From an uncultured virus (IMG/VR IMGVR_UViG_3300037153_000398) (taxonomy: Duplodnaviria > Heunggongvirae > Uroviricota > Caudoviricetes): DNA of 20,000 nt. The DNA is taken from IMG/VR virus record IMGVR_UViG_3300037153_000398, one strand, 5' to 3'. Positions 2,345-15,042 of the stretch are shown here, piece by piece (positions within the stretch are counted from its first letter, which is position 1; every line of letters begins with the position of its first letter). A program made the position numbers and the translations under genes. Under the pieces are notes generated by a model. It ran no database searches. It was not told the origin of the DNA and was given only the letters and a program-made list of their open reading frames with translations.

Positions 2345-4879
2345 TTAGGCCCACGTCACTCCGGACATCCACTGCACCATGCCGGGACGGCGGTAGGCCC
2401 AGTTCATCGGTAGCAGCATTCGAACGCCAATCGTATCCGTCTGCCAGAGCGAACGAGTCGGAACGGCAGGGACAGGCGTGCCGGTGGTGCCGCCGATGAT
2501 GGCGAGCGGAGCCGTATCTTCCATGTGAAGGACAGCCTGATCGCTCACGTCGAAGCGCGGAGCGGCTTCGGTGACGCTGGCGAAGTCAGCGCAGTCCAAG
2601 AGGATCATCGTGCCCGCCGGCACGCTTGCCGACTTCACGATGGGGAACGACATCAACGTGCCGCGCGCGATTTCCTCGCGGAACGGCAGGATGCCGACAG
2701 TGGTCGGAGTCAACGCCGCAGCCGCGACCAGGGACGGCGACATCAGCCACACCGGATCGCGCAGATTGCCCAACGTCGACACATTCAACGCATCGATTAG
2801 CAACTTGATGTCGCCGATCAGCGCGTTGATGCCGCCGCCAGCGGTCGGCGTCAGCCCGGTGGTGCCGTTGAGCAGGCCGGGCGGCCGGACGGCGGTCGCC
2901 GCGTTCTGGTCGAGCAACACGCTATCGAGCGAGATGGCCGTGTCGTTGGTGATCGCTTCGCGGATCAGCCCTTCGATGGCCGGCGTCGAGTGTTCGGCCA
3001 GCTCGCGGGTGAAGGTCGAGATGACGGCCATCTTTTTGGGCGTCAACTGGACGGTCGCGAACGCGCCTTGACGCACCGGGATGGGCGCGCCTTCGCCGAC
3101 GAACGAGCCGGCGATTTGCGGCGTCTGATTACGCATCGGCAGGTTGATCACGCCGTTGCGTCCGAAGGTGAAGCTCTGGCCGCGTCGCGCAATCTCGGGG
3201 AAGACCGAGAACGGCAACAGGGCTTCGATGAAGTCCGTCCACACCTGCGTCACGAGTTCGGCCGCCCATCCCGGCGCAACGATGGTCGCCGGCACGGAAG
3301 CGTTGCGCGTGACAAGGTTCATCACGGTGCGCGTCGCTTCGTCCTCGCCGTAGTGCTCTTTCAGGATTTCGAGGATCGGGCGCTTGTGCTGTTCGTGATG
3401 GTGGATGACCTGCAGAGTGAGCGCGCGCCACATGTAGTCTTGCGGCCGAACCTTCTTCGCAGGGATGGCGAACGGACGCGGGTGAGCGACCGCAAGGGTG
3501 CCTTCACCGCCACCACCGCCGCCGTTCTGATACAGCATGACGTTGCGGGCCTCGATGTGCTCGGGGCCGACACTCGCCACCGCAAGACGCGCTTCGGCTT
3601 CCTGCAAGGTCGCCAGCGTCTTGTCTTCCTGTGCGATCCGCGCGTTCAGCTCTTGCGTGGTCGCCATATCGGCGTCGCTGACGTTTTCGTCATTGACGTT
3701 TTTCAGATGCTCCGTGAGTTGGTCCTGATAGCGCACCAATCGCTGTTGCGATGCCTGGATGCGCTGGCCCAACGGCGAATTGCCGTTCATGGCTCGTCTC
3801 TCAAAGCGAGAGGGGTCGTGGCGGGCTTGCCGGTGGTTTCGCCGACGACGCGCGCTATCGCCTTGTTTGCTGCCGGGCTTGGCAAAGACGATGTCGAGCG
3901 TTGCGGACGAAATGTTGAGAGACTTCGCAACAGACAAAGCGTTCGGATTGGCCGGAACGCTGACCAGCGAAGTCTCGACTAGCTCTTGTTTCAGATACCG
4001 CTCGCCGCCGAAGGGGTTGCCCTTTTGCAGCGGCTCGGATTCGAGCGCGCGGAATCCGACCGACACCGCCTTGAGGATGCCGGCGTCGATCAGCTTGCGG
4101 ATTTCATCGATGCGCGGCGACGTGCCGGCCGGCGCGAGCTGCAGATGGCCGCGCAGCGCGCCCTTGTCGACGCGCAGATTGGCCCATTTGCCAATCGGAA
4201 AATCCGAGTGATGGTTGAACAGCGCGATGGGATTTTTCTTGAAGTTCTCCAAATCCCATCCGGTCGCCGAGATGATGTCGCCCAGGCGGTCGGGCGTTTC
4301 GTCGGACAGAATGAATTCCATCCCGTTGACGGTTTCGGCGTGCGTCTTGTGGCGCACGCGGTTGCCGGCGAACGTGTGCAGCCCGCCCGGCCGGCCGGGG
4401 ATGCTGGCCTCTTCCCACATGATCGAGCAGCGGTCGGTCGCGGCGTCTTCGTCGATGTCGTCGTCTTGCTCCATCAAGGCGTTGACGCAGTCGTCCATCC
4501 AGTCGTCGTAATCGTCGACATCCGGATCGGGCGGCTCGACTTGTTTGAGATGCTTGCCGGTGGGATCGGACGTGTCCCACATCAGCCGGCAGTATTCGTT
4601 GGCCGCGTCCTGCGCCATGCCGCTGGTCATGCAATTGAGCACGCAGCGCGACATGAAGCCGGCTTGATCCTCGCCGTTGCTCGGCGCGTCCTGTTTGACC
4701 TTGGCGTTGAGCACGCCCTTTGGCTTCGGCTCGCCCTTTTCGTCGCGCCACATCGTCAGACACGCGGCGACGGCCTGATCCTGCGGGCGCTTCTGGCCAC
4801 CGTCCTGCCCCATCATCTCGGGCACGCAGCGGCGCATCCAATCGTCTTGCTTTTCGTCTTTACCGGGCTTGATTGGCAT
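2345..4879 (-). CDS. Fused HK97-type prohead protease (S78-like) and major capsid protein
   Basis: Protease motifs FILSDETPDRLGDII, NPIALFNH, AVSVGF and ETSLVSVPANPNA, then a coiled-coil delta-like region and capsid motifs (FVGEGAPIP, LTPKKMAVISTFTRELAE, SLWQTDTIGVRM). The probable start is ATG 4879 (GGAG RBS), but the frame is open up to 5272. A possible internal capsid start lies at 3790. Confidence 0.92.
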   Translation of the reverse strand: MPIKPGKDEKQDDWMRRCVPEMMGQDGGQKRPQDQAVAACLTMWRDEKGEPKPKGVLNAKVKQDAPSNGEDQAGFMSRCVLNCMTSGMAQDAANEYCRLMWDTSDPTGKHLKQVEPPDPDVDDYDDWMDDCVNALMEQDDDIDEDAATDRCSIMWEEASIPGRPGGLHTFAGNRVRHKTHAETVNGMEFILSDETPDRLGDIISATGWDLENFKKNPIALFNHHSDFPIGKWANLRVDKGALRGHLQLAPAGTSPRIDEIRKLIDAGILKAVSVGFRALESEPLQKGNPFGGERYLKQELVETSLVSVPANPNALSVAKSLNISSATLDIVFAKPGSKQGDSARRRRNHRQARHDPSRFERRAMNGNSPLGQRIQASQQRLVRYQDQLTEHLKNVNDENVSDADMATTQELNARIAQEDKTLATLQEAEARLAVASVGPEHIEARNVMLYQNGGGGGGEGTLAVAHPRPFAIPAKKVRPQDYMWRALTLQVIHHHEQHKRPILEILKEHYGEDEATRTVMNLVTRNASVPATIVAPGWAAELVTQVWTDFIEALLPFSVFPEIARRGQSFTFGRNGVINLPMRNQTPQIAGSFVGEGAPIPVRQGAFATVQLTPKKMAVISTFTRELAEHSTPAIEGLIREAITNDTAISLDSVLLDQNAATAVRPPGLLNGTTGLTPTAGGGINALIGDIKLLIDALNVSTLGNLRDPVWLMSPSLVAAAALTPTTVGILPFREEIARGTLMSFPIVKSASVPAGTMILLDCADFASVTEAAPRFDVSDQAVLHMEDTAPLAIIGGTTGTPVPAVPTRSLWQTDTIGVRMLLPMNWAYRRPGMVQWMSGVTWA

Positions 4880-5272
4880 GACGCTCTCCACAAGGTTGGC
4901 GTCGCCGGTCCCCTTCAGCGTCACAGTGTTTGTTTGGTCGCGCGGTTGGCTGCCGCGCAGCTTGAGCAAACGGGCGGCTTCGGCGCGGATCGCCGACCAC
5001 GACTGCTGCACCGGGCCGCCGCTCGGGCCGCCGCTGCTGCCGCCGCCGTTGTCGCCGCCACCGCCGCCGCCCTTCGGCTTCGGCGCGATCCGCGCGAGCT
5101 GCGCTGGCGTGATGCCAAGCCGCAGCGCGACGGCGTCGCTGGCGGCCTTGGCCGCCGCGTCATCGCCATCGTTCAAGATCGGGTTGTGCAGGTCCGCGTC
5201 GCGGCGCTGGTCGTTCTGTTCGTAGAAGAATTCTTGCGCCGGACTACTTTTTCGCTTTGCCGACGTAGGCAT
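4880..5272 (-). CDS. 131-codon segment in frame with the protease-capsid gene (small protein or N-terminal extension)
   Basis: ATG 5272 overlaps the end of the 794-aa gene. The first ~65 aa look like a small helical domain, followed by a Gly/Ser linker. There is no stop before 4879. Confidence 0.5.
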
Positions 5273-7628
5273 TAAAGCGGTCCATCGTCTCGCGGTCGTG
5301 AAGGTCTATGACGCCGTTCCAGTCGGTGCCGAGCAGCAGGTCTTTGCCGTGCGCGGAATCGGCAATCGACCAAATCGCTTTCGGGTCGCCGCTATCGGCA
5401 AGGTCGCGAAGCACGCTGGCTTCGTCTTCGTCGATGTCGCCCGAGTCAGTCTCGACGTTGGGCAGCTCGCCGTTGTTGGACGCCCACCGAAACTTGTCGC
5501 GGTCGCTCATCGCATCCCACGACTCGTTCTGAAAATCATCGACGCTGTCGCTGAAGTCTGGCGGGTCGACATCGCTGCGGTCGCGCTCGGCCTGATCGTT
5601 GAAGGCGTCGACCAGCGCGCCCTCGATGTCGTGGCGCATGTCGTCGGTCAGCTTGTCGCGGTCGGCTTCGGGCAGCGCCGTTTCGTCAATGGTGATGTCC
5701 GGATCGGCGCGGCCGTCGTCGTAGCGGTCGCTGTAGTCGCCGACCGACAAGGCATCGTGAATTTGCTGATCGCTAAACGGGATGGCGTCGGCGCGGCCGG
5801 CGCGCAGCTTGTCGAGCGCGGCCGACATCCACTTCGGCGGCTCGTTGGCGTCGGCGAGCGCCTGCGTCAGATTTTCCTTGGCTTGGTGCAGGTCGCCGCC
5901 GTTGTCGCGCCAATTGTCCGCTTCGCTCTGTTCGAATTCGTCGCGCGTGTCGCGCTTCCAGGCGTCGCGAACATTGTCTTGCTGATCGCTTGTCAGCTCA
6001 TCCCAACTCGACGGCTCGTAGCCGCCACCGCCGCCGATCTTGTCGCGGATGTCCGACGACAAGCTGGACCACGAATCGTCGGTCGGGACGTAACCATACT
6101 TGGCCCAGGCATAGCCGCCGACATCGATGTCGGCATGGACTTCGACTTCGTCGAGCCCGAGTTTTTGGTACATGTCGACATTGGCCTTGAGCACCTGCTT
6201 TCCGATGTCGCCGCCCGTGTGGCCGTGATTGAGCGCGAAATAATCGCTCGATGCTTTGTTGTTAAGAAAATCGATGGTGCGCGTGTAGGTGCCGATGCTG
6301 TTGCCGTTCTCTTTGTCGAGAATCTTGCCGTTGATCGAAATGTTGTTCTCGTAAGGCTCGGCGTGCTCGGAGTCGTAATTAAAATTGACCCGCATGGTGC
6401 AGGGCACGTTGCCCATGAAGTCTTTCTTGAATTGCTCGGGCGCTTCGGCGACGTGCGCATCCCACTCTTCGAGAAATTTTTTCGACTTCTCCGGATCGCT
6501 GGTCGTGTCGGAATCAACTTCGACCTTGCCCTTGCTGAAGTCGGCCATCTCGATAGGCGTCTTCACGGGCGGCAGCTCGGGGAAGAGCCCCGGAAACATC
6601 TCCATCTGCGTCATCGCCGTCGTCGGCGCGACGGGCTTGGGCTCGGCTGCTGCGGCGTGCGTGTCGTCGAGCGCCTTCAGGGCTGCGGTCTGCGCCGCGA
6701 TGCCCTCTTCGTAGGTCGCGACCGGCTTGCCATCGCCGCGCTTGTATTCCTGCGCGTGCGCCGGGTCGTAGACCATGAAGACAACATCGGGCTTGCCGTT
6801 GTTGAATTCCTTGAACGTCTCCGCATTCCAGCCGGCCGGCGCGAATTTCGGATTGAACGGCAACCGCGCGACGGCGCGGAATCCGGATCGGCTGTAGAGC
6901 TTCGGCAGCACGGTATCGAAGGCGTCGAGCCTGCGCCCGCCGTTCTGCGTCGCCAGTGCCAGCGCCGACTGCGCAAAGCCGGTGAGCTGCGCGCCGGGAT
7001 GCTTGAAGACCGACACGATGTTGTCGTCGGCGAGCGCGAAGCCGGCCTTGCCGTCCGACGTGAGGAACGGCCGCATGAAGGCGTATTCGGCACCGGAATG
7101 CGCTTCGACCGACGCGCCGTAGGGATTGGCCGCTTGCGCCGCCTTGATGGCGTCCTCGAAGCGACCCGCGCCTTGCGTCGGTTTTAGTTCGTGAAAAGTG
7201 ACCGGCGTGCGCCCGGTCGCCTGCCAGTCCGCGCGCGCGGGACCATGCAGCGACCAGACGGTTTTTACATCCCCGCTGCCTTCAGCATTTCCAGGGCCTT
7301 TTCCGCTGAAAGCCCCGGCGTATCCCGCATAACGGCCTCCACCAACTTCCGGTCGGCCGGATGCAGGTTCGCCAGCGGATGCGGCTCCGTCGTCGGCAGC
7401 AGCGGCTTCGCTTCCGCCGTCGCCGTCACTTCCGCCGCCGCCTCCCGTCCATTGGCCATGTTCGTCTCGCGGTTCGCCCGGATCAAAGCCGGCGCGCAGC
7501 TTGAGAAGCTGCGCAGACTCGGCGCGGATCGCCGCCCATTGGCGGGCGCGGTCATCGCCGTCTGTAATATGGGGCGACGCGCCGGGCAAGCCACGGGCGC
7601 GGCCCGGCTCGGGCAAGGCCGTTTGCAC
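5244..7628 (-). CDS. Large multidomain protein with PRDxxGxW motif and two GNAT-like domains (putative virion-associated effector)
   Basis: GTG start with AAGGGA RBS; FDPGEPRDEHGQWTGGGG motif. Domain 1 (~6760-7080): GGRRLDAFDTVLPKLYSRSGFRAV. Domain 2 (~6080-6300): HTGGDIGKQVLKANVDMYQKLGLDEVEVHADIDVGGYAWAKYGY. The C-terminal third is very acidic. Confidence 0.7.
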   Translation of the reverse strand: MQTALPEPGRARGLPGASPHITDGDDRARQWAAIRAESAQLLKLRAGFDPGEPRDEHGQWTGGGGGSDGDGGSEAAAADDGAASAGEPASGRPEVGGGRYAGYAGAFSGKGPGNAEGSGDVKTVWSLHGPARADWQATGRTPVTFHELKPTQGAGRFEDAIKAAQAANPYGASVEAHSGAEYAFMRPFLTSDGKAGFALADDNIVSVFKHPGAQLTGFAQSALALATQNGGRRLDAFDTVLPKLYSRSGFRAVARLPFNPKFAPAGWNAETFKEFNNGKPDVVFMVYDPAHAQEYKRGDGKPVATYEEGIAAQTAALKALDDTHAAAAEPKPVAPTTAMTQMEMFPGLFPELPPVKTPIEMADFSKGKVEVDSDTTSDPEKSKKFLEEWDAHVAEAPEQFKKDFMGNVPCTMRVNFNYDSEHAEPYENNISINGKILDKENGNSIGTYTRTIDFLNNKASSDYFALNHGHTGGDIGKQVLKANVDMYQKLGLDEVEVHADIDVGGYAWAKYGYVPTDDSWSSLSSDIRDKIGGGGGYEPSSWDELTSDQQDNVRDAWKRDTRDEFEQSEADNWRDNGGDLHQAKENLTQALADANEPPKWMSAALDKLRAGRADAIPFSDQQIHDALSVGDYSDRYDDGRADPDITIDETALPEADRDKLTDDMRHDIEGALVDAFNDQAERDRSDVDPPDFSDSVDDFQNESWDAMSDRDKFRWASNNGELPNVETDSGDIDEDEASVLRDLADSGDPKAIWSIADSAHGKDLLLGTDWNGVIDLHDRETMDRFNAYVGKAKK
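7265..7459 (-). CDS. Candidate nested 64-aa ORF in an alternative frame of the 794-aa gene
   Basis: MANGREAAAE...HPADRKLVEAVMRDTPGLSAEKALEMLKAAGM*. The C-terminus is helical and protein-like, while the host frame here is a Gly/Ala low-complexity linker. The RBS is weak. Confidence 0.45.
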   Translation of the reverse strand: MANGREAAAEVTATAEAKPLLPTTEPHPLANLHPADRKLVEAVMRDTPGLSAEKALEMLKAAGM

Positions 7629-7684
7629 GTCCGAATTCCCTTGTTTTTCAGCGGTTCCGCCAAGGCAATAAAGATCGTGGCCGC

Positions 7685-7742
7685 CTTGAAGGGGCCATTT
7701 TGGCCCCCCATATTATTCCTTGGAAGGGGCCATATAGGTCCC
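7685..7742 (+). promoter_or_regulatory. Putative promoter of the plus-strand operon with two operator-like palindromes
   Basis: TTGAAG(7686)-N17-CATATT(7709), also readable as CTTGAA-N15-CCCCATAT (RpoH-like). Palindrome GGGGCCATTTTGGCCCC at 7691-7707 and a degenerate copy GGGGCCATATAGGTCCC at 7726-7742. Confidence 0.6.
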
Positions 7743-7895
7743 TGGTTCACCGCCGGACACGGCCCCTTCGCGGCCTTTGCAAGTCCGGTGCGCCTCTCCA
7801 AGCCGTCAGCCCGCCGAAGCCAGTAGGCCAAAGGAAGATCGGGAAACGCGCCGTGAGAAGCCCCGTCTAATACGAGGCGGACTCCAACAAGACAC

Positions 7896-7986
7896 CACTG
7901 ACGGCGGCGCGCGGATCGCGCCGTCTCACAGTGTTGCACTTGCAATGCTCGCCGCGACACGCGGCGTTCTCAAACGGAGTCACACA
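7896..7986 (+). repeat. Structured intergenic leader element, copy A (divergent)
   Basis: CACTG..GC stem..CAGTG; alternative stem AGTGTTGC/GCAATGCT; hairpin CGCCGCG-ACA-CGCGGCG; AACGGAGTCAC at 7973-7983. Confidence 0.7.
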
Positions 7987-9012
7987 ATGGAAACCGCAAA
8001 CATCCTCGAAAATCTTTTCGAGGTCAGCATGGACCGCGCTGCGATCCTGTTGCGGCACTACACCGACGCGGGCCAGCCGGTTTTTCTTTGGGGCAAGCCC
8101 GGCATCGGCAAGACCGACATCGCGCATCAGCTCGGCGCGGAGACGAAGCGCAAGGTCATCGAATTCCATGCCGCGCTACGCGAGCCGGTCGACGTGCGCG
8201 GCGTGCCGAGCGTGGTCAACGGCCTGACACGCTGGAACGTGCCCGACGAATTGCCGCGCGTCGAGCGCGACGGCGAAGAGGGCTATCTGTTCCTCGACGA
8301 ATACAATCAAGCCTCGCTGCAGATGCAGTCGGTGCTTGGCGGGCTGGTCCTCTACGGCACGGTCGGCGACTACCGGCTGCCGAAAGGCTGGCGCATCATT
8401 GCGGCGGGCAATCGCGTCAGCGACCGCGCCGCTGCGCAACGGATGCCCTCGCACATCAAGGGCCGCTTCGTTCACATCGCGTGCGTCGCGAACGTCAAGG
8501 CGTGGGCCGATTGGGCGACCAAAAACGGCGTCGCCCCGGAAGTCGTCGCCTTCGTTCGCTTCCGGCCCGAGCTGCTGCACCGGATGCCGCGCGGCGACGA
8601 AGCGGCATATCCGTCGCCCCGCACTATCGTTCGCGCCGCCAAGCATGTGAATGCGCCGGCCGAGATTCGTCAGCAACTCTTCGCAGGCGCAATCGGCTGC
8701 GATGTCGCTGGCGAGCTGGAAGGCTACATTCGGCTTTATCGCTCCATCGGGACGCTCGAAGACATCGTCGCGCATCCTGACACGGCGACCATCCCGACCG
8801 AGCCGTCCGAACGGTACGCGGTCTGCACCGGGCTCGCGCGTCTCGCGACGCGAAAGAACTTCAGCAACATCATCAAATACGCCGACCGCTTGGCCGGCGA
8901 GCCGAAGATGTTGCTCGTTCACGACGCCACCACGCGCGACCCGTCGCTGAAAGAGACGGCCCATTACTCGAAGTGGGCGGTCGAGAACGGCGACATGATC
9001 CTGCAGTCGTGA
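7987..9012 (+). CDS. AAA+ ATPase (MoxR/AAA_5-like)
   Basis: Walker A WGKPGIGKT, Walker B LFLDEYNQ, IIAAGNR and PSPRT. ATG 7987 follows the GGAG RBS motif. Confidence 0.9.
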   Translation: METANILENLFEVSMDRAAILLRHYTDAGQPVFLWGKPGIGKTDIAHQLGAETKRKVIEFHAALREPVDVRGVPSVVNGLTRWNVPDELPRVERDGEEGYLFLDEYNQASLQMQSVLGGLVLYGTVGDYRLPKGWRIIAAGNRVSDRAAAQRMPSHIKGRFVHIACVANVKAWADWATKNGVAPEVVAFVRFRPELLHRMPRGDEAAYPSPRTIVRAAKHVNAPAEIRQQLFAGAIGCDVAGELEGYIRLYRSIGTLEDIVAHPDTATIPTEPSERYAVCTGLARLATRKNFSNIIKYADRLAGEPKMLLVHDATTRDPSLKETAHYSKWAVENGDMILQS

Positions 9013-9112
9013 TGATCGCTACAGGCCGGCGCTTCGTTGCGCCGGCCGATAGTGTTCACCCGAACGCTGCCCGGCAAACGGGCCTTTCAACTTCCAACGG
9101 AGTCACACAACA
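9013..9112 (+). repeat. Structured intergenic leader element, copy B
   Basis: TGATCGCTA-CA-GGCCGGCGC-loop-GCGCCGGCC-GA-TAGTGTTCA; alternative partner GAACGCT; hairpin GCCCG/CGGGC; AACGGAGTCAC at 9096-9106. Confidence 0.9.
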
Positions 9113-10024
9113 ATGCCGAAGAGAATCGCGTCACCGTTGTCGCGCAAGGCGACGCTGGTCGCTGTGGAAATTTCGCAGTGGACGGCGCGCAAGTACGACA
9201 AGCGCGTCACCGAAAAGGTCAACCGCGAGCACGGTGCGGCCGAAGACGCCGGGCGCTACAACAAGCTGCTCATTCAGGCGGATCGCCTGAAGCGCATCAA
9301 CTGCCTCGTGTCGCAGGCCCGGACGCTGCACTACAAGTACACGAAACCGTGGGCCGACGAAGGCTTGCGCATCCTGCCGAACACTCTGCACGCCAAATTC
9401 GCCGACGAGTTTCGCGTCATCAAGCGCGAGTTTGATGAAGCGGCCGACGACTTCGCCCGCGACTATCCGGTCTTCGTTGAAGAGCGGAAGCGCGAGCTGA
9501 ACGGCCTCTTCAATGAAGGCGACTATCCTGCGCCCGGCGACATCCGGGCCAAGTTTCGCCTGAAGATCAAACCGTACCCGGTGCCGGAAGCCGACGACTT
9601 CCGCTCCGATACGCTCGACGACGACACGCTCGACGACATCAGGCGCGAGCTGATGGACGCCCACGCCGACGCGGCGACGGCCGTGACCCAAGACACGGTC
9701 AAGCAAATCGTCGACGTGGTCGGGCACATGAGCGAAAAGCTGAAAGCCTACACGGGCGGTCAGCCGGGCGACGACGACGAAGACAGGTCGAAGCCCAAAA
9801 ACTTCTTCACCGACTCGCTGGTCGGCAACGTGCGGTCGCTCGCCGAGCTGCTGCCGCACTTCAATCTGCACGATGATCCGAAACTGAAAAAGATCATCGG
9901 CCGCATCCAACGCGAGCTGTGCGTCGAGGAAGCGGCCACGCTGCGCGAGAACGAGAAAGCGCGCGCCGTGGTGCAGAAAAGCGCCGACGACATCCTGCGC
10001 GATGTCAATGCGCTTCTCGGCTGA
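9113..10024 (+). CDS. Helical phage protein, DUF3150-like
   Basis: 303 aa between the AAA and vWA genes. Motifs VEISQWTARKYDK, NKLL, TKPWADEGLRILP, FARDYP, LFNEGDYP and FNLHDDP are typical of the middle gene of this trio (from memory). Confidence 0.7.
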   Translation: MPKRIASPLSRKATLVAVEISQWTARKYDKRVTEKVNREHGAAEDAGRYNKLLIQADRLKRINCLVSQARTLHYKYTKPWADEGLRILPNTLHAKFADEFRVIKREFDEAADDFARDYPVFVEERKRELNGLFNEGDYPAPGDIRAKFRLKIKPYPVPEADDFRSDTLDDDTLDDIRRELMDAHADAATAVTQDTVKQIVDVVGHMSEKLKAYTGGQPGDDDEDRSKPKNFFTDSLVGNVRSLAELLPHFNLHDDPKLKKIIGRIQRELCVEEAATLRENEKARAVVQKSADDILRDVNALLG

Positions 10025-10086
10025 TCAAACAAACCACCGCTTCGGCCAATCCCGGCCGAAGCCGCCAACCGGAGTCACAAAACGCA

Positions 10087-11625
10087 ATGTCAGAGATTGA
10101 CAGGGCAGCCGCCGAGCGCGTCATGCGCGCGCGTGCCGAGCTGATTCAGAGCCACACGTTTTACGGCGTGCTGGTTTCGAATGTCGAGCCGAAGCCGTCG
10201 CGGGTTTTCCCGACGATGGCGACCAACGGCGCGACCCACTTCTACAATCCCGACTACATCATGAAGCTGACGCCGAAACAGGTACTCGGCGTGCAGCGGC
10301 ATGAGAGCGAGCACGACGGCCGCCGCCACCATACGCGGCGCGGCAAGCGCGATCCGAGGGAATGGAATATCTGCACCGACTTGGCCATCAACATCGACTT
10401 GGTCGACGAAGGTGTCGAGCTTCCGCCCGGCGCGCTGGTCGACGCGAAATATCGCGGCTGGTCGGCCGAAGACATCTACCGCGCTCGCGAGCTGGACCGC
10501 CTAAAGGAACAGCAAGAGCAAGAGAAGCAACGCCAGCAACAAAACCCCTCGCAAGATGCCGAAGACGGCAAGAGCGGCGGCGATGGCGATGGCGACGACG
10601 GCGACCGCGAACAACAGCCGGACGGCGGCGACGCTGATCAACAGCCGGACGGCGACCGCGATCAAGATGGCGACGACGGCGACACGCATGGCGACAAGCC
10701 CGGCGATGACGAAGCCGACGAAGCCGGCGACGCGGAAGGCCAAGGCGGCGGCGAGCCCGGCGAAGAGCCCGGCGACGAAGCCGGTGCAGCCGGCAGCGAC
10801 GACGCTTCCGGTAATGAACCGAGCGACGAAGCTGCCGGCGCGAGCGCCGCTGATGGCGGCGCGGACGGCGAACCGGACGGGCAAACGTCCAGCGCGCCGA
10901 TGTCGTGCGGCGATCCGGGCGGCTGCGGCGAAGTGCTCGACGCACCCGCCGAAGAGCCGGCCGACATCGCCGACGAAGACGGCAAGTGGGAACGGATATT
11001 GCGCCAAGCCGCTTCGCTCGCGGCCAAGCGCGGCAACGCTCCCGGTCATGTCTCTCGCGAAATCGAGCGGGCCGATAAGCCGCCGCAAGACTGGCGCGAG
11101 ACGTTGCGCGCGTGGTTCGATCAAGGCGCGGCGCGCATCGAAACCTGGGCGCGGCCCAATCGTCGCTTTATCAGCTCCGGAATCTACCTGCCGGGCTCGC
11201 AACGCGACGGCATCAACCGCGCCGTCTTCCTGATCGATACATCCGGCTCGATGGACAAGATCGCGCTCGCTTGCATCAACACGGAAGCACAAGCCGCACT
11301 CGACGAAGGCATCATCGACGAAGCCGTCGTCATCTATGGTGACACGCGCGTCACCCGAGTCGACACTTACCGCAGCGGGGACCAAATCGAATTCGATCCT
11401 CGCGGCGGCGGCGGGACCAGATTAAACCCGCTGTTCGATTACGTGCGCGATCAGCTCGACGACGTGTCACTGATCGTTTGCTTCACCGACATGGAAATCG
11501 GCGATCCCGGCCCCGAGCCGGCCGCGCCGGTCCTGTTCGCGGCGACGGGCTATCCCGACAAGGTGCGGCGCTATCTCGCCGATGCACCGTGGGGCGCGCC
11601 CGGCATCGATGTCGGCTCGCATTGA
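10087..11625 (+). CDS. DUF2201-like protein: HExxH putative metallopeptidase, acidic linker, vWA domain
   Basis: TMATNG, HESEH, WNICTDLAIN; ~130-aa Asp/Glu/Gly linker; MIDAS motif IDTSGSM, GGGGT and FTD. ATG 10087 follows CCGGAGTCAC. Confidence 0.88.
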   Translation: MSEIDRAAAERVMRARAELIQSHTFYGVLVSNVEPKPSRVFPTMATNGATHFYNPDYIMKLTPKQVLGVQRHESEHDGRRHHTRRGKRDPREWNICTDLAINIDLVDEGVELPPGALVDAKYRGWSAEDIYRARELDRLKEQQEQEKQRQQQNPSQDAEDGKSGGDGDGDDGDREQQPDGGDADQQPDGDRDQDGDDGDTHGDKPGDDEADEAGDAEGQGGGEPGEEPGDEAGAAGSDDASGNEPSDEAAGASAADGGADGEPDGQTSSAPMSCGDPGGCGEVLDAPAEEPADIADEDGKWERILRQAASLAAKRGNAPGHVSREIERADKPPQDWRETLRAWFDQGAARIETWARPNRRFISSGIYLPGSQRDGINRAVFLIDTSGSMDKIALACINTEAQAALDEGIIDEAVVIYGDTRVTRVDTYRSGDQIEFDPRGGGGTRLNPLFDYVRDQLDDVSLIVCFTDMEIGDPGPEPAAPVLFAATGYPDKVRRYLADAPWGAPGIDVGSH

Positions 11626-11721
11626 GCACTAAGGGCGGCGGCTTCGGCCGCCGCCTCGTAGTGTTCATTCCGGACACTCGCCGCACTGCGCGGCGGCATC
11701 AAACAAACCGAGTCACACAGA
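11623..11721 (+). repeat. Structured intergenic leader element, copy C
   Basis: TGAGCACTA-AG-GGCGGCGGC-TTCG-GCCGCCGCC-TCG-TAGTGTTCA; alternative partner GGACACT; hairpin CGCCGC/GCGGCG; ACCGAGTCAC. Confidence 0.88.
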
Positions 11722-12117
11722 ATGTCAGAACCTTGCGAACCTTTTGGCCCCGACTATCCGCGCGAGCTTGGCGCGGCGGTCGCCCGTTTCCGAACCGCTG
11801 CGCGGCGCGGCGGCGTCAAGAGCAAAGCCGAGAAGCACGCTTACGGCGACGCGGTCGGCAACGCCATCTTGGCGCTACAGCGGCGCGAGCTGATGGCCTG
11901 CCTCAAGCCGGCCAATCCGAAGATCAACTGCGCGAGCGGCACCGTCTACAACACGGGTGCCGAAATTCACGCGGCGCTTCGCCGACAGCAACGCAATGCG
12001 CTCGCCAACTATCCGAGCGCCGTGCGCCGGGCTCGCACGCCCGAGCAATGGCGCAAGATGTACGCTGACGCGATGAAGCAAAAACGCGCGCGGCTTGCGC
12101 TGCAGGCCGCCGCATAA
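11722..12117 (+). CDS. Hypothetical basic protein (131 aa)
   Basis: Directly follows leader copy C and fills the gap to the next RBS motif. Confidence 0.75.
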   Translation: MSEPCEPFGPDYPRELGAAVARFRTAARRGGVKSKAEKHAYGDAVGNAILALQRRELMACLKPANPKINCASGTVYNTGAEIHAALRRQQRNALANYPSAVRRARTPEQWRKMYADAMKQKRARLALQAAA

Positions 12118-12135
12118 ACACCAACGGAGTCACCA

Positions 12136-12414
12136 ATGATCACGCCTACCGAACGCCAGCTTATCCACGACATCGCCGACCGCGCGAGCAAGCTTTACGA
12201 AGCGCACGGCGTCAAGGTCGCGCCGCCGTTCATCGCGACGGAGCTGGAAATCGTACACGACAAGGTGTGCGCACTTCGGCTCGCCGAATTGCGCGACGCC
12301 AAGGATGTCGACCTTGCGCACGACATCGCCGGCATTCACGACCACCTGCAATCGGAGCCCGGCCGGCGCGGCACCTACAGGCTCGACGGCTTCTCGCCGC
12401 GTTTCAGGAAGTGA
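12136..12414 (+). CDS. Small phage protein, DUF6874-like
   Basis: IADRA...H..C.LRL.EL..A...DLAHDIAGI..HL...F.PRF pattern; AACGGAGTCAC upstream. Confidence 0.7.
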   Translation: MITPTERQLIHDIADRASKLYEAHGVKVAPPFIATELEIVHDKVCALRLAELRDAKDVDLAHDIAGIHDHLQSEPGRRGTYRLDGFSPRFRK

Positions 12415-12599
12415 GCAACCAAATGCGCGACCTGCGTGACCGCCTTGGCGAAGCGTTACGACGCCATCGCCACGGCCTCATTCGCCCGCTGTGGGCCGAT
12501 ATGAACGAGCCGGATCGCGAAGCCTACCGGCGAGCGGCCGACATGTTTGTTAGGACCGCGAACGGCGTCGGCATCGTCATTACAACAAGCGAGGAATGA
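12411..12599 (+). CDS. Hypothetical protein (~60 aa)
   Basis: GTGA overlap with the upstream stop (alternative ATG at 12423); LWADMNEPDREAYRRAA; its stop begins leader copy D. Confidence 0.65.
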   Translation: MSNQMRDLRDRLGEALRRHRHGLIRPLWADMNEPDREAYRRAADMFVRTANGVGIVITTSEE

Positions 12600-12693
12600 C
12601 CGCTACAGGCCAGCGCCGCGCGCGCTGGCCGATAGTGCTCATTCGAGCACACGCCGCCATGCCAAGCGGCGACACCCCCAACGGAGTCACAAC
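12597..12693 (+). repeat. Structured intergenic leader element, copy D
   Basis: TGACCGCTA-CA-GGCCAGCGC-loop-GCGCTGGCC-GA-TAGTGCTCA; alternative partner GAGCAC; hairpin CGCCGC/GCGGCG; AACGGAGTCAC at 12680-12690. Confidence 0.9.
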
Positions 12694-13107
12694 ATGATCC
12701 AACCGAAAACCATCACGCTGGTCCGCGCCGAAGGGCTGATCGCCGAGTGCGACCGGCCAGAAACCGCGAAGACCTGGGCGCACGCGAACGCGATCCTGTT
12801 TCGCTGGTCGCGAACCGCGCCCGAGCACGGCGGCTATGACAAGTGCGACTTCACCATCATCTTCGAAGATGGCTACGAGTACAAAGGCCGCTACGACCTG
12901 ATGCACTACAGGCGCGAGCATCCGGACCTTGCCCGGCACGTCCGCAGCTTCATGCGGTATCTTGCCGGCGAACTGCCGGAATGGTGCGTCGAGCAAAAGG
13001 ACATCGAGCGCGTGCGCCGGCACCAACAATCGCTTGGCGAAGAGTCGAAGCGCGAAGCGGTGGCGTGGCTCGAAACCCACGACTGCGGTCAGGCGGTCAA
13101 GTCATGA
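12694..13107 (+). CDS. Stand-alone LPD25-like (large polyvalent protein-associated domain) protein
   Basis: GGYDKCDFTIIFEDGYEYKGRYDL matches the remembered LPD25 signature GYDKT.F.I...G..Y.GR.D. Confidence 0.65.
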   Translation: MIQPKTITLVRAEGLIAECDRPETAKTWAHANAILFRWSRTAPEHGGYDKCDFTIIFEDGYEYKGRYDLMHYRREHPDLARHVRSFMRYLAGELPEWCVEQKDIERVRRHQQSLGEESKREAVAWLETHDCGQAVKS

Positions 13108-13217
13108 GCGTTTGGCTTACTGCCTTGGCCCTCTACTTGTCGCCGACCGTGATCATCCTCGCGGTGGTCGCGGTCATCGTGATCGCGGATCGCCTTCGAC
13201 GACGGAGACAGCCATGA
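13104..13217 (+). CDS. Small single-pass membrane protein (37 aa)
   Basis: MSVWLTALALYLSPTVIILAVVAVIVIADRLRRRRQP; ATGA-coupled at both ends. Confidence 0.7.
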   Translation: MSVWLTALALYLSPTVIILAVVAVIVIADRLRRRRQP

Positions 13218-13459
13218 GCCGCAAACGCGAAGACATGTCCCTGCCGTGGAAGAGTCCGTACTGGACGCGCGCCCGCACGGGCGACCACGTCTACGACGCC
13301 AACGATCCGCGCCACGCGGCGCGGCTTAACGCCATCCACAACGGCATCGCCTACGTCCGGTTTTTCGACACCGGCTACAAGGGCGAAATCAAGCTCGACG
13401 ATCTTCGCCAAGTCGGCAAGCGCCCCTTGGACAAGACCGAAGACTCGCCGTGGCTATGA
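13214..13459 (+). CDS. Hypothetical protein, possibly SH3/KOW-like barrel (81 aa)
   Basis: GGAG RBS; ATGA-coupled at both ends; GDHV...AYVRFFDTG...IKLDDLR pattern. Confidence 0.65.
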   Translation: MSRKREDMSLPWKSPYWTRARTGDHVYDANDPRHAARLNAIHNGIAYVRFFDTGYKGEIKLDDLRQVGKRPLDKTEDSPWL

Positions 13460-13716
13460 GCGGGCCTCTGCCTATCCAATCGCGGATGGCCCGCGCCGGC
13501 TTGCGGTGGGGCATTCGCGACCTTGCCCGCGCCGCCAAGGTGTCGGTCGACACCGTCGTCCGTTTCGAGCGCGGCGAAGAGCTGAAGGCCAGAACGGTCG
13601 AAGCTCTTCAACGCGCCTTCGAGCTGGCCGGCGTCGAATTCACCACGGGCGACCGGCCGGGCCTGCGCTTGTCCGCAAACGATTGTCGCGGCCGAACAAG
13701 TCCTAATGACCGTTGA
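13456..13716 (+). CDS. XRE-family HTH transcriptional regulator
   Basis: QSRMARAGLRWGIRDLARAAKVSVDTVVRFERG...ALQRAFELAGVEF...PGLRL, a type common in Alphaproteobacteria. Confidence 0.9.
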   Translation: MSGPLPIQSRMARAGLRWGIRDLARAAKVSVDTVVRFERGEELKARTVEALQRAFELAGVEFTTGDRPGLRLSANDCRGRTSPNDR

Positions 13717-13817
13717 GCTGCTACAGGCCAGCGTGCGCGACGTGCGTGCGCTGGCCGATAGTGCTCACCGAGCACTCGCCGCCAACGCGCGGCGCACCAA
13801 ACCAAAACGGAGTCACC
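13714..13817 (+). repeat. Structured intergenic leader element, copy E
   Basis: TGAGCTGCTA-CA-GGCCAGCGT...GCGCTGGCC-GA-TAGTGCTCA; alternative partner GAGCACT; hairpin CGCCGC/GCGGCG; AACGGAGTCAC at 13806-13816. Confidence 0.9.
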
Positions 13818-14018
13818 ATGACCAAGAAACAGACGGCCGGCCACAAGGCCGCCGCCACCCGTCGCCGTCGCGCGGCCGGCCGCAAGGCCGCCGTCACCCG
13901 TCGCCGTCGCAAGGCCGCCCATAAGGCTCACGCAACACGCCGGCACCGGAAAGCGACACGTCGCCGGGCTGCGCTCAAAGCGCACGCCACGCGGCGGCGC
14001 ACGGCGCGGAAGTCGTAA
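13818..14018 (+). CDS. Protamine/histone H1-like highly basic protein (66 aa)
   Basis: Four A-[AG]-x-KA-x-[AV]-TRR repeats, no acidic residues, conserved RBS motif before ATG 13818. Confidence 0.75.
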   Translation: MTKKQTAGHKAAATRRRRAAGRKAAVTRRRRKAAHKAHATRRHRKATRRRAALKAHATRRRTARKS

Positions 14019-14052
14019 AGTCGAATCAAACAATGCAAAAACGGAGTCATCA

Positions 14053-14439
14053 ATGAGAAAGCTACTTTTCGCGCTCGCCGTCACAGCGGCGGCGGTTCTG
14101 CCGGCGCACGCCGACATGGACTCGGACTATCACAACAAGCTGAACCAGCAGCTCGATATGGAGAAAGCCGTACAACAGCTCGACCGGCGCACCGATCAGT
14201 TCAGCAACTATCTTGGCGCATTGACGCAGGCGCAACTCGGCAACGTCTATCGTCGGCTGACGCCCTACATCGATCAGAGCCACACCGACTGCAACTCTTC
14301 GGGACACAAGCTGGCGTTCTGCATGTTGCTCGGCGCGGTGCAACACTGCGTCCATGTCAACTTCGGCGACATCAAGGAAAGCGACCCTGACATGATCGCC
14401 ATGTGTCGCTGGATCGATGCCACGAAGACCACGAATTAA
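14053..14439 (+). CDS. Secreted/periplasmic protein with four Cys (128 aa)
   Basis: Signal peptide MRKLLFALAVTAAAVLPAHA-; AACGGAGTCAT upstream. Confidence 0.8.
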   Translation: MRKLLFALAVTAAAVLPAHADMDSDYHNKLNQQLDMEKAVQQLDRRTDQFSNYLGALTQAQLGNVYRRLTPYIDQSHTDCNSSGHKLAFCMLLGAVQHCVHVNFGDIKESDPDMIAMCRWIDATKTTN

Positions 14440-14452
14440 AGCGACGACGATC

Positions 14453-14498
14453 AACCCCGGTCGGGCCGCGTTCGCGCGCGGTCCTGCCGGGGTTTTTT
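14453..14498 (+). terminator. Rho-independent terminator closing the plus-strand operon
   Basis: CCCCGG..GGGCCGCG-loop-CGCGGTCC..CCGGGG stem followed by TTTTTT. Confidence 0.85.
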
Positions 14499-14574
14499 AT
14501 TGGTTGCGCCGGATCGCGACCCCAAGGCATTTACGTTAAGAATTGTCTTGGCTTGGTTTTTCAAACCCGGCCAA

Positions 14575-14624
14575 TTGACGCGGTGCCAGCGTGGCCCCTA
14601 TTTTAAGATAGGGCATATTGCCCT
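14575..14624 (+). promoter_or_regulatory. Putative promoter and operator of the second HTH gene
   Basis: TTGACG(14575)-N18-TATTTT(14599). The spacer holds GGTGCCAGCGTGGCCCC, and the palindrome AGGGCATATTGCCCT lies at 14610-14624. Confidence 0.6.
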
Positions 14625-14661
14625 CACAAAAAAAACGCGAGGAAGAAAAGGGCTTGGGTGT

Positions 14662-14877
14662 ATGGCTAGACACGCTACCGACAGCGACTTCGTTCGCGAA
14701 GCACGCAGTCGACTTGGAATGACGCAGGACCAATTCGCCTGCCTGATCGGATCGTCGAAGCGAACCATCAAGCGCGTCGAGGCCGGTCAGCCCTTGGACC
14801 TGATCGTTCGCATTGGTATCGTGAGCGTGCTCGACGTGGTCGAGCGGTTTTCGAAGATCAAAGCCGAACAGGCTTGA
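14662..14877 (+). CDS. XRE-family HTH regulator (71 aa)
   Basis: VREARSRLGMTQDQFACLIGSSKRTIKRVEAG. Confidence 0.85.
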   Translation: MARHATDSDFVREARSRLGMTQDQFACLIGSSKRTIKRVEAGQPLDLIVRIGIVSVLDVVERFSKIKAEQA

Positions 14878-15042
14878 CGCTCTTCGACGTGGGCTCGGCG
14901 CGGCGCGCTTAGTCGTCCGTCGCGACACCGCATCGGAGCGGACCAGCGGGCGGTGTCCGTAACAACACCCGTAGCGGCGGCGGTGACGTGGTGCGTGAGC
15001 TAGTGACTCGCCCCCCATGCTCACCGGCCGCCGTCCGCTTTT

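Follow-up and report, generated by a model that had tools for sequence, protein, structure and literature searches.

Copies of a structured element in a phage operon

The stretch of DNA analyzed here (the window; 20,000 nt) comes from an uncultured soil phage and carries a plus-strand operon of non-structural genes (7987-14439). Between the genes of this operon, in this phage and its relatives, lies a folded element of about 100 bases. The original prediction had described five copies of one architecture, and all five are present in the sequence at the positions given (Table 1), within 6.5 kb. The gene order also agrees with the proposal that each copy forms a unit with the one to four genes that follow it. 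The internal copies share one order of parts: seg1, an internal loop, the P1-apical stem, seg2, seg3, the P3 hairpin, a G-poor linker, GAGTCA, and ATG.

In the copies at 9013, 11623, 12597, and 13714, seg1 has the consensus TGAnnRCTA. The internal loop of P1 is CA/GA in copies 2, 4, and 5, the number of copies for which it had been reported, and A/TCG in copy 3. P1-apical is a 9-bp GC stem that varies in sequence between copies and is longer in copy 5. Seg2 (TAGTGYTCA) pairs with seg3 (GARCRC) to form P2, and P3 has the arms CGCCGC/GCGGCG (GCCCG/CGGGC in copy 2). Copies 3, 4, and 5 begin with the stop codon of the upstream gene, the TGA of seg1; the seg1 TGA of copy 2 is a second in-frame stop, the gene's own stop being at 9010-9012. 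Copy 1 is an operon-leader variant with ACACCACTG in place of the TGA arm.

Table 1. Coordinates of the element copies, their parts, and associated features in the window
Feature	Position	Strand	5' parts	3' parts	Scores and remarks
Copy 1 (operon leader)	7892..7986	+	seg1 7892-7900; P1-apical 7902-7910/7918-7926; seg2 7929-7937; seg3 7942-7949	P3 7950-7955/7961-7966; GAGTCA 7977-7982; ATG 7987 (ATPase)	R1 E 4e-11; R2 E 2.5e-16; fold z -3.35
Copy 2	9013..9112	+	seg1 9013-9021; P1-apical 9024-9032/9039-9047; seg2 9050-9058; seg3 9061-9068	P3 9069-9073/9078-9083; GAGTCA 9100-9105; ATG 9113 (DUF3150)	R1 and R2 matches; fold z -4.59
Copy 3	11623..11721	+	seg1 11623-11631; P1-apical 11633-11641/11648-11656; seg2 11659-11667; seg3 11671-11678	P3 11679-11684/11690-11695; GAGTCA 11710-11715; ATG 11722	R1 and R2 matches; fold z -4.71; seg1 TGA is stop of DUF2201 gene
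Copy 4	12597..12693	+	seg1 12597-12605; P1-apical 12608-12616/12622-12630; seg2 12633-12641; seg3 12644-12651	P3 12652-12657/12666-12671; GAGTCA 12684-12689; ATG 12694	R1 and R2 matches; fold z -4.66; seg1 TGA is stop of 58-aa gene
Copy 5	13714..13817	+	seg1 13714-13723; extended P1-apical 13726-13741/13748-13756; seg2 13759-13767; seg3 13769-13776	P3 13777-13782/13789-13794; GAGTCA 13810-13815; ATG 13818	R1 and R2 matches; fold z -4.02; seg1 TGA is stop of HTH gene
Decayed sixth copy	10022..10086	+	stop TGATCA; one hairpin CTTCGGCC/GGCCGAAG	GGAGTCAC; ATG 10087 (DUF2201/VWA protein)	weak R1 match 9966-10084, E 0.62; hairpin fold z -3.51
Leader anti-Shine-Dalgarno GGACTCC	7879..7885	+			complementary to GGAGTC before first gene
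GGAGTCA start motif, no structured element	12126..12132	+		ATG 12136	before DUF6874 gene
GGAGTCA start motif, no structured element	14043..14049	+		ATG 14053	before 128-aa gene
Operon end, GC-rich hairpin then TTTTTT	14455..14498	+			read from sequence

A search of the window with model R1 gave the five copies E values of 1e-10 to 4e-17. The other matches were confined to weak hits on the minus strand, which echo the near-palindromic P1, and the single weak plus-strand match at the decayed sixth copy, a gene junction that carries full or weaker copies in relatives (L012:6388, L010:12215, L104:7972, L105:6717, and L008:9319). The fold energy of every copy was better than that of all 200 dinucleotide shuffles (z of -3.35 to -4.71). 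No Rfam family matched at E values up to 10, in line with the earlier statement that this is not a named RNA family.

Seven of the eight exact plus-strand matches to GGAGTCA in the window sit 4-10 nt 5' of an ATG, and the motif also precedes genes that lack the element, at 10071, 12126, and 14043. The GAGTCAC motif is missing from some relatives that carry the structure (L185, L188, L199, L242, and L105). Across 61 copies the linkers are poor in G (A 332, T 209, C 204, G 107). The hairpin and T run at the end of the operon look like an intrinsic terminator; this hairpin was absent from the results of the consensus scan.

Covarying helices and two competing folds

With a covariance model, 66 distinct copies were detected among 26 related phage contigs, 23 of which carried the element; every copy was on the sense strand, and 14 loci from distant relatives yielded none. 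All 70 matches at E <1e-11 lay on the same strand as the flanking genes. In two complete relatives (64-65 kb), every match fell inside one 5- to 6-kb stretch (G002 4499-9230 and G003 32833-38340). Copies flanking three core genes keep identical positions and subtypes in phages with 55-70% protein identity and therefore are inherited, not mobile. Unrelated genes follow elements in different phages, and some phages, such as L105, have no P3 at all.

Four helices covary: P1-apical, P1-lower, P2, and P3. P1-lower pairs seg1, including the upstream UGA stop, with seg2. Both P1-lower and P2 use the seg2 strand, and the two are mutually exclusive. On alignment A10 (62 distinct copies, not fitted to P2), P1 and P3 were 94.2% paired compared with 72.2% in shuffles, and 21 of 23 pairs had changed on both sides (0 of 500 shuffles matched this), the copies being mutually related so that these counts are not independent events. 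Covariance-model alignments are biased toward the structure of their model. On A10, P2 was 81.6% paired, and 6 of its 8 pairs had changed on both sides. Alignment A12 comprised 66 distinct copies and was fitted only to P1-apical, P2, and P3; on it, P1-lower was 93.5% paired compared with 81.3% in shuffles (0 of 500 matching), and 6 of its 8 pairs likewise had two-sided changes. Both competing helices thus hold on alignments not fitted to them. The three-part architecture of the original prediction is real, and the compensatory changes do point to selection on structure.

Seg1, seg2, and seg3 are the only parts conserved in sequence, and they change together between phages. At one position the three strands read U-A-U (n = 37), C-G-C (n = 5), or G-C-G (n = 2), and at the next C-G-C (n = 54) or U-A-U (n = 3); in addition, seg1 and seg3 show wobble changes that are independent of each other (A-U-G in 12 copies, G-U-A in 6). 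Within a single phage, the sequences of P1-apical and P3 differ freely, yet these helices stay 98% and 95% paired, respectively. In P1-apical there were 48 G·U pairs compared with 5 A·C pairs, and in P2 30 compared with 8, which points to pairing as sense-strand RNA; there was no such excess in P1-lower (18 to 17) or P3 (6 to 7). P1 is constant in length at about 20 bp: its 5' arm is 18-20 nt long in 65 of 66 copies and the 3' arm 19 nt in 59 of 66. P2 and P3 are adjacent hairpins spaced 0-1 nt apart.

The P1-lower and P2 states are similar in predicted energy. The minimum-energy folds of the 62 copies contained P1-lower in 41 cases and P2 in 18; when seg1 was blocked, P2 formed in the predicted folds of 49 of 62. 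Predicted accessibility of the Shine-Dalgarno sequence was equal in both states (0.35 versus 0.37).

A stop triplet begins 54 of the 66 distinct copies (53 TGA and 1 TAA). In 45 of these 54, the frame of the triplet stays open upstream for 50 codons or more, or as far as the contig end, compared with 7 and 20 for the other two frames; in the remaining stop-starting copies, the true stop usually lies one or two codons earlier. The apical stem begins a constant 10-11 nt past the U of UGA. Leader copies, with no stop codon and no upstream gene, retain both competing helices, including C-G-C triplets. In 7 of 10 phages, GACTCC is found some 10-25 nt 5' of the copy that opens the operon. The predicted minimum-energy fold contains a GACTCC-GGAGUC closing helix in the window, L009, L101, L113, L099, and L012, and this helix is partly formed in the predicted folds of L010 and L104.

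A probable cis-acting RNA in the transcript and alternative readings

These observations are best explained by a cis-acting structured RNA that forms part of the operon's polycistronic transcript. Of the functions first put forward, a role in RNA processing or cis-regulation is favored, because the strong copies are all on the sense strand, G·U exceeds A·C in P1-apical and P2, and P1 has a constant two-turn length; the attC-like recombination site is not. As to function, the likeliest of the readings, which we suggest tentatively and which may well prove wrong, is an intercistronic signal for mRNA processing and stability of the T7 RNase III site type. P1 (9 bp, an internal loop of 1-2 nt, 9-10 bp, and a loop) would form an interrupted duplex of constant, two-turn length, to be cut near its internal loop by host RNase III or a similar duplex-specific nuclease. 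None of four phage records encodes an RNase III, and therefore a host enzyme must be assumed. The upstream cistron would retain its stop codon, with the GC-rich apical hairpin shielding its 3' end. Once released, seg2 would re-pair with seg3, so that P2 could refold as a hairpin at the new 5' end; the downstream cistron would then start with the P2 and P3 hairpins, followed by the open G-poor linker and the Shine-Dalgarno sequence. In the leader copy, the cut would detach the upstream anti-Shine-Dalgarno (GACUCC) and free the ribosome-binding site of the first gene.

The T7 early sites (R0.3 to R1.3) likewise are related hairpins at gene junctions of a multi-kilobase polycistronic phage mRNA. 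PMC3867540 describes an ideal RNase III substrate of 22 bp, or two helical turns, and a T7 early precursor of about 7,000 nt with five such signals, compared with five copies in about 6.5 kb here. According to the same source, the T7 sites are duplexes of about two turns with an internal loop, and internal loops in RNase III substrates lead to single-strand cuts that leave stabilizing 3' hairpins (PMC3867540); for T7 this outcome is established, whereas cleavage of the present element is a proposal. The two have no likeness in sequence, and the element adds the competing helix P2, the third hairpin P3, the in-stem stop codon, and the fixed GGAGTCAC start motif. We are aware of no P2-like helix, P3, in-stem stop codon, or fixed start motif in the T7 sites.

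Counting against processing, RNase III needs no specific sequence, whereas seg1, seg2, and seg3 are conserved, and P1-lower and P3 show no G·U excess. Conservation of the three segments can be attributed to their double pairing duty; a sequence-specific protein would explain it equally well.

A translation-termination switch is a less likely reading, though one worth weighing: a ribosome stopped at the seg1 UGA would melt P1-lower and free seg2 for P2, with the apical hairpin staying intact at the ribosome entry site. The switch would report upstream translation to the downstream region (through coupling, decay, or polarity) and could be combined with cleavage. Footprint data place the 3' edge of a ribosome with a stop codon in its A site roughly 10-11 nt past the U of UGA, where the apical stem begins. 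The prevalence of stop triplets in open frames and the predicted move to P2 on blocking of seg1 also are consistent with this notion. Genome compaction would place a stop at the first base of a constrained element as well, but it explains the sharp preference for a stop codon there only loosely, and ribosome sensing fits it better. Against a switch, the P1-lower/P2 competition and its three-way covariation persist in leader copies, which have neither an upstream gene nor a stop codon, and the equal Shine-Dalgarno accessibility of the two states offers no visible output.

It is doubtful that the element is simply an expression spacer or insulator, in which the hairpins, the open G-poor linker, and the fixed GGAGTCAC ribosome-binding site would keep gene starts from pairing with neighboring GC-rich coding RNA, with no cleavage and no switching. 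The linker composition, the regular placement of GGAGTCA before ATG codons, and the unrelated genes behind elements in different phages all fit. Such a role leaves unexplained the constant two-turn length of P1, the selected P1-lower/P2 competition, and the confinement to one 5- to 6-kb stretch of 64- to 65-kb genomes, and the Shine-Dalgarno sequence is predicted to be just ~35% unpaired.

Improbable, too, is a platform for a protein or RNA polymerase, as in processive antitermination by HK022 put RNAs or lambda nut sites, with nascent hairpins modifying the transcribing polymerase anew at every gene junction. Those RNAs, too, act in cis as hairpins of the nascent transcript in early phage operons, and put RNA has a layout similar to the adjacent P2 and P3. 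The P3 loop CTTGCA(A/T) is conserved in many relatives, and a T-rich run follows P3 in 19 of 61 copies. However, put and nut sites occur once per operon, just past the promoter, whereas the element occurs five to seven times, at gene junctions. The P3 loops of the window are not conserved, P3 is missing altogether in some phages, and in all five window copies the 8 nt that follow P3 contain fewer than 4 T; the scan and this T-run count revealed no evident terminator 3' of the window copies. No conserved partner protein was found in 16 related loci, where the arginine-rich 66-aa protein beside copy 5 has no counterpart.

More improbable still is that the element acts at the DNA level in the shuffling of accessory genes, as a site of recombination or a patch of homology. 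A gene-content break at an element boundary, as had been envisaged, was found: DNA homology to six relatives stops within copy 3, at 11677-11687, and the nine window genes 3' of it have no counterpart in 16 related loci. Neighboring copies can share apical stems (window copies 4 and 5; L010 14207 and 14709), and a contig of low depth runs directly from 13817 to 14053, linking two successive GGAGTCA sites, which is weak evidence (depth 2, 26-nt side). Like integron attC sites, the element has conserved outer inverted repeats around a variable but paired center, lies directly past the preceding stop codon, and punctuates a one-orientation array of unrelated genes. Against an attC-like site, no integrase or tyrosine recombinase was found in the window, as first reported, or in four relatives (two complete), the 3' arm (TAGTGYTCA) has no GTTRRRY box, and the core-gene copies are inherited in place. 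Both the excess of G·U pairs and the strict orientation in the sense direction suggest RNA, and a mosaic joint is likely at any intergenic spacer in phages.

DNA operators for a phage helix-turn-helix regulator, like the L5 stoperators, are the least probable reading: TGAnCACT would be a half-site occurring three times per element, P2 would be a classic 8-3-8 palindrome, the conserved segments change together between phages, and HTH genes lie in and beside the operon (13456-13716 and 14662-14877, the second with relatives in L104 and L013), but a DNA site would not need the well-paired, variable P1-apical and P3, the G·U pairing kept through independent G/A changes in seg1 and seg3, or the G·U excess of P2.

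Likeness to described repeats

Of the repeats described so far, the SAS/ESAS sequences of Cluster K mycobacteriophages come closest to the element. As described in PMC3203893, SAS is a short asymmetric motif, comprising a Shine-Dalgarno sequence and flanks unable to pair with 16S rRNA, that stands in one orientation before a subset of non-structural genes and is kept between phages before genes of different families. Immediately 5' of about half of the sites stand imperfect inverted repeats separated by a spacer that varies (ESAS), with arms of 17 bp compared with 9 bp here, and the motif is GGGATAGGAGCCC rather than GGAGTCAC (PMC3203893). The 13-mer GGGATAGGAGCCC had no above-chance match in the window. 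Here, the spacer itself is a covarying hairpin, P2, P3, and the stop codon are extra, and the hosts and phage clades differ.

Operons also contain REP/BIME, Correia, and ERIC sequences, imperfect palindromes that recur in intergenic regions and are transcribed. Folded within the mRNA, these repeats change its stability or serve as cleavage sites for RNase III or RNase E, and stable hairpins near a stop codon can affect termination. In contrast to the element, they are chromosomal, present in hundreds of copies in either orientation, and often mobile; the element is found in 5-7 copies, on the sense strand only, keeps its positions across diverged phages, and has its three hairpins in a set order.

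Element copies and their genomic setting

The original prediction held that five copies of one architecture lie in this stretch and did not recognise them as a named RNA family, and both statements were borne out. The five copies and their architecture were confirmed in the sequence, and each copy folds better than 200 of 200 shuffled versions of itself (z -3.35 to -4.71). Scanned with cmscan against Rfam 15 (E up to 10), the whole window gave seven weak matches, none of them at an element. Each copy runs from a first segment (seg1) through the apical arms of P1 to seg2, seg3, P3, a G-poor linker, GAGTCA and an ATG. The lower part of P1 (P1-lower) pairs seg1 with seg2, and P2 pairs seg2 with seg3. 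In copies 3 to 5 the outer stem begins with the stop codon of the preceding gene, TGA; in copy 2 this TGA is an in-frame second stop. The sequence GGAGTCA has eight exact plus-strand matches in the window, of which seven sit 4-10 nt before ATGs of the operon and the eighth, at 2706, lies opposite the capsid gene. Some of the genes preceded by GGAGTCA have no element.

The window belongs to the genome of a tailed phage. The copies sit at the gene junctions of a co-oriented row that closes in a terminator-like hairpin and lies between minus-strand genes for tail fibre, portal, protease/capsid and terminase. The row encodes a MoxR-like AAA ATPase, a DUF3150 protein and a DUF2201 metallopeptidase/VWA protein (the three core genes), followed by nine small genes, mostly without a known family. 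A sigma-70 promoter and terminator scan of 7500-15000 predicted no sigma-70-like promoter inside the row and no plus-strand promoter- or terminator-like site at any element of the window; on these grounds, promoter and intrinsic terminator were both rejected as identities of the window elements. Of 61 copies overall, 19 have at least four T residues within the 8 nt after P3, as against none of the five in the window.

Features of the window by position
Feature	Position	Strand	Basis or content
Collagen-repeat tail fibre	1-780	minus
Portal	500-2128	minus
Fused prohead protease and major capsid protein	2345-5272	minus	family match
794-aa ORF	5244-7628	minus	no Pfam family
GACTCC(A/T) upstream of copy 1	7879-7885
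Element copies 1-5 (starts)	7892, 9013, 11623, 12597, 13714
Gene row (operon)	7987-14439	plus
Decayed copy at DUF3150/DUF2201 junction	10022-10086	plus	TGATCA, one hairpin, GGAGTCAC
Insert in DUF2201 gene	10520-10900		low complexity
66-aa protein	13818-14018		39-nt tandem repeat at 13834-13911
Terminator-like GC hairpin and TTTTTT at operon end	14455-14498	plus	read from sequence
AT-richer stretch	14500-14900
Promoter-like site	14575-14604	plus
Promoter-like site	14629-14600	minus
Xre-type HTH gene	~14662-14877
Large terminase	17950-19497	minus

The window stretch is present in five sequencing runs, all of soil DNA. Contigs from four of these runs end at elements, as assemblies do at repeats. 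They show a few single-base differences from the window, none of them compensatory, and no firm gene gain or loss.

Several other features of the window were recorded. The protease/capsid fusion is a single ORF of 975 aa, with the prohead protease at residues 347-445, the major capsid domain at 675-912 and about 320 N-terminal residues without a family match. The adjoining 794-aa ORF has only weak PHROG matches, to families of unknown function. The metallopeptidase-like and VWA-like domains of the DUF2201 gene are separated by a long insert, acidic and glycine-rich, that contains short tandem repeats; DNA homology is broken at this insert against most of the relatives compared but not against L104, a related locus. 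The AT-richer stretch beyond the operon hairpin holds two facing promoter-like sites and an Xre-type HTH gene with relatives in L104 and in a second related locus, L013; it may be a regulatory switch region.

Covariation and two competing helices

P1 emerged from an unguided alignment under RNAalifold, and 9 of its 14 pairs there change on both sides. Because model-made alignments lean toward the structure of the model, each competing helix was scored on an alignment made without that helix.

Pairing and covariation in two model-made alignments of distinct copies
Helices	Alignment	Paired, observed vs shuffled	Pairs changed on both sides	Shuffles reaching observed
P1 and P3	A10 (62 copies), fitted to them	94.2% vs 72.2%	21/23	0/500
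P2	A10, not fitted to P2	81.6% vs 75.0%	6/8	0/500 (changed-pair count: 5/500)
P1-lower	A12 (66 copies), not fitted to P1-lower	93.5% vs 81.3%	6/8	0/500
P1-apical, P2 and P3	A12, fitted to them	93.8% vs 71.4%	21/23	0/500

When the 3' partners were shifted by 1-3 columns, pairing fell to 29-52%. Thus P1-lower and P2, which cannot coexist because both use seg2, are each supported. The three segments also change together. At one position U-A-U in 37 copies is replaced by C-G-C in 5 and G-C-G in 2, and at another C-G-C in 54 copies is replaced by U-A-U in 3; independent wobbles occur as A-U-G (12 copies) and G-U-A (6 copies). Being orthologues and paralogues, the copies are not independent samples. 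Minimum-energy folds contained P1-lower in 41 of 62 copies and P2 in 18; with seg1 blocked, P2 formed in 49 of 62. The two states are thus predicted to be close in energy. The element, found in an uncultured soil phage clade, is a genuine and well-supported new structured RNA motif, known from 66 distinct copies and with four covarying helices. What is unusual in its design is that two helices, both under selection, compete and one of them contains the upstream stop codon.

Over all helices, G·U combinations outnumber A·C combinations 102 to 37 (48 to 5 in P1-apical, 30 to 8 in P2, 18 to 17 in P1-lower and 6 to 7 in P3). This G·U excess in P1-apical and P2, together with the strict sense orientation of the copies and the free variation of P1-apical and P3 within one phage, points to pairing in the plus-strand transcript.

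Distribution, stop codons and gene content

Relatives were found through a DNA pattern and then through the ATPase protein, among viral and metagenome contigs whose ATPase is 55-70% identical; the covariance-model searches covered these retrieved loci. A first model (R1), built from 20 copies on the structure of P1 and P3, finds copies in 7 of 7 close sources and 17 of 17 close metagenome loci, and in none of 14 loci (5 + 9) from distant relatives, those with ATPase identity of at most 47%. Scanning viral contigs with a loose DNA pattern gave more than 125 stretches, mostly chance hits; 73 loci were scored with the model and 4 carry the element. Two of these have core genes; the other two use a different ribosome-binding motif and lack any core gene within 1.5 kb. 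In the contigs L188 and L199 the element stands beside unrelated small genes (one Rap1a-like) with no core gene within 1.5 kb. With a second model (R2), 23 of 26 sources yielded 70 matches below E 1e-11, of which 66 are distinct; all 70 have the same orientation as the genes beside them. Two complete relatives have all their matches within a single region: 4499-9230 in G002 (65 kb) and 32833-38340 in G003 (64 kb, with terminal repeats). A blastn search of 7001-15000 against 50,697 phage records gave no match. The window ATPase is 33% identical or less to that of any isolated phage, and so no laboratory phage is known to carry the element.

Two variations in P3 were seen. The four copies of the related phage contig L105 (4633, 5748, 6717 and 8286) have P1 and P2 but no P3, and GGAGCAAAC replaces GGAGTCAC. 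In many copies of other relatives the P3 loop is CTTGCA(A/T), as at 5009 in L009 and 14207 in L010, and it is exactly CTTGCA in 14 copies; it is not conserved among the five copies of the window. This conserved loop suggests contact with a protein or another RNA in those relatives.

A stop triplet opens 54 of the 66 distinct copies (53 TGA, 1 TAA). In 45 of the 54, the frame that it ends stays open upstream for 50 codons or more, or as far as the end of the contig, compared with 7 and 20 for the other two frames; where this does not hold, the true stop mostly lies one or two codons upstream. Nine of the 12 copies without a stop triplet have ACA. Among 10 phages checked, the operon-opening copy has no stop triplet except in L012, where TGA is preceded by a frame open for only 27 codons. 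The downstream ATG lies 89-115 nt from seg1 in the 62 copies that make up the first alignment and 73-80 nt from it in L105, which has no P3.

The suggestion that the elements punctuate a variable gene array was upheld by gene content. Only the three core genes are common to the window and its relatives, DNA homology to six relatives ends at 11677-11687, inside copy 3 and just past P2, and a tblastn search of 16 related loci at E 1e-3 matched none of the nine window genes after copy 3. The copies flanking core genes have the same positions and the same subtype across phages and are inherited in place. In the variable part of one genome, neighbouring copies have apical stems in common. It had also been stated that the window encodes no recombinase, and no Pfam recombinase was indeed matched among its 21 ORFs. 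The tyrosine recombinase family PF00589 was absent from four of four related records, two of them complete, and the control was detected in 14 of 14 genomes. The element thus differs from integron attC sites in having no integrase in the window or four relatives, and also in lacking the R' core GTTRRRY at the 3' end, where the aligned arm is YAGTGYTCA and a C follows GTT.

Among the variable genes, that of the 66-aa protein encodes an extremely high content of arginine, lysine and alanine, and its tandem repeats are 92% alike. Neither Pfam nor PHROG matched the protein, and no counterpart occurs in 16 related loci; the latter led us to drop it as an N-like partner. A low-depth contig from one soil run (depth 2, with a 26-nt side) joins 13817 to 14053. 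This evidence is weak; if real, the joint would delete exactly the 66-aa gene, from GGAGTCA site to GGAGTCA site.

Candidate functions and comparable systems

P1 is an interrupted two-turn duplex of nearly fixed length. Measured from its base through eight apical pairs, with one apical pair further beyond, its 5' arm spans 18-20 nt (65 of 66 copies) and its 3' arm 19 nt (59 of 66). The 5' side of the internal loop comprises 1-2 nt (58 of 66 copies) and the 3' side 2 nt (65 of 66). P1 therefore has the form of a T7-type RNase III site, whose duplex spans roughly two helical turns (20-22 bp) and in many cases contains an internal loop. A review of RNase III (PMC3867540) gives 22 bp as the ideal RNase III substrate, describes internal loops as leading to single-strand cuts that leave stabilising 3' hairpins, and counts five RNase III signals in the T7 early precursor of ~7000 nt. 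In concept the element is most like a processing signal, and we tentatively favor an intercistronic one, at somewhat less than even confidence; every functional step is one that we infer. If P1 were cut, the upstream cistron would retain its stop codon and end in a 3' hairpin. After such a cut seg2 would re-pair with seg3, so that the downstream RNA would open with hairpins. No phage-encoded RNase III was found in four relatives. Were the element a processing signal, an unrelated phage clade would organise its early mRNA as T7 does, with a conserved signal of its own.

The leader copies have a further feature. They carry GACUCC 10-25 nt upstream of P1, complementary to GGAGUC of the first gene, and GACTCC(A/T) is conserved upstream of the first copy in the window and in six relatives (L009, L010, L101, L113, L099 and L012). 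GACUCC and GGAGUC close a four-way junction around P1, P2 and P3 in the best fold of 6 of 10 phages and partly in 2 more. This junction, when closed, would mask the ribosome-binding site of the first gene, and a cut in P1 would detach the anti-Shine-Dalgarno sequence. GAGTC and GACTC are both GANTC sites, the target of the CcrM methylase of alphaproteobacteria.

The main rival is that the element senses translation termination. The precise placement of the stop codon fits this better than it fits processing; processing is ranked first because it covers all copies, including those without a stop codon, and we consider sensing unlikely. It would amount to a new regulatory principle. Less probable still is a combination of the two, in which a ribosome terminating on the UGA of seg1 would flip the long, nuclease-sensitive P1 into P2, each junction being cut or spared depending on whether the upstream gene is translated. 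Conserved joints for the accessory-gene swaps of the clade would be a side effect. If true, this would define a class of cis-regulatory RNA not seen before, one whose input is translation termination and not a metabolite or protein. Since the motif is short and self-contained, reporter tests are possible without growing the phage.

Further readings that were weighed are an antitermination platform, a plain insulator, a recombination site and a DNA operator. Two other proposals were dropped. A switch gating the downstream ribosome-binding site was set aside on the equal predicted Shine-Dalgarno openness of the two states (0.35 vs 0.37), and pairing of UCAC (after GGAG) with GUGA at the stop codon on the lack of covariation of the flanking bases, judged by eye in the alignment. 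The put antiterminator RNA of phage HK022 consists of two stem-loops just downstream of an early promoter and acts on RNA polymerase. The likeness is one of layout only, P2 and P3 being 0-1 nt apart.

A limited set of literature searches did not find the element described and otherwise gave general RNase III papers and unrelated items; they do not establish its absence from print. The closest system found in print is the SAS/ESAS repeats of Cluster K mycobacteriophages (PMC3203893), which precede non-structural genes. They share the layout of a start-associated motif that is conserved and has inverted repeats upstream, separated by a spacer that varies, and their function is stated as unknown. 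Like their motif, GGAGTCA is asymmetric and conserved, contains the Shine-Dalgarno and stands in one orientation before a subset of non-structural genes. The sequences and dimensions differ. The ESAS inverted repeats are 17 bp, imperfect, separated by 4-13 bp and just upstream of the motif (PMC3203893), whereas the element has arms of 9 bp and a spacer of ~25-30 nt, forming a stem-loop, with two more hairpins before the motif. The 13-bp Cluster K motif GGGATAGGAGCCC has 3 matches in the window at 3 mismatches (4.1 expected), none of them before a start codon of the operon. Since it resembles them in layout, the element is a structural lead for the SAS/ESAS repeats, for which the 2011 paper (PMC3203893) gives no function.
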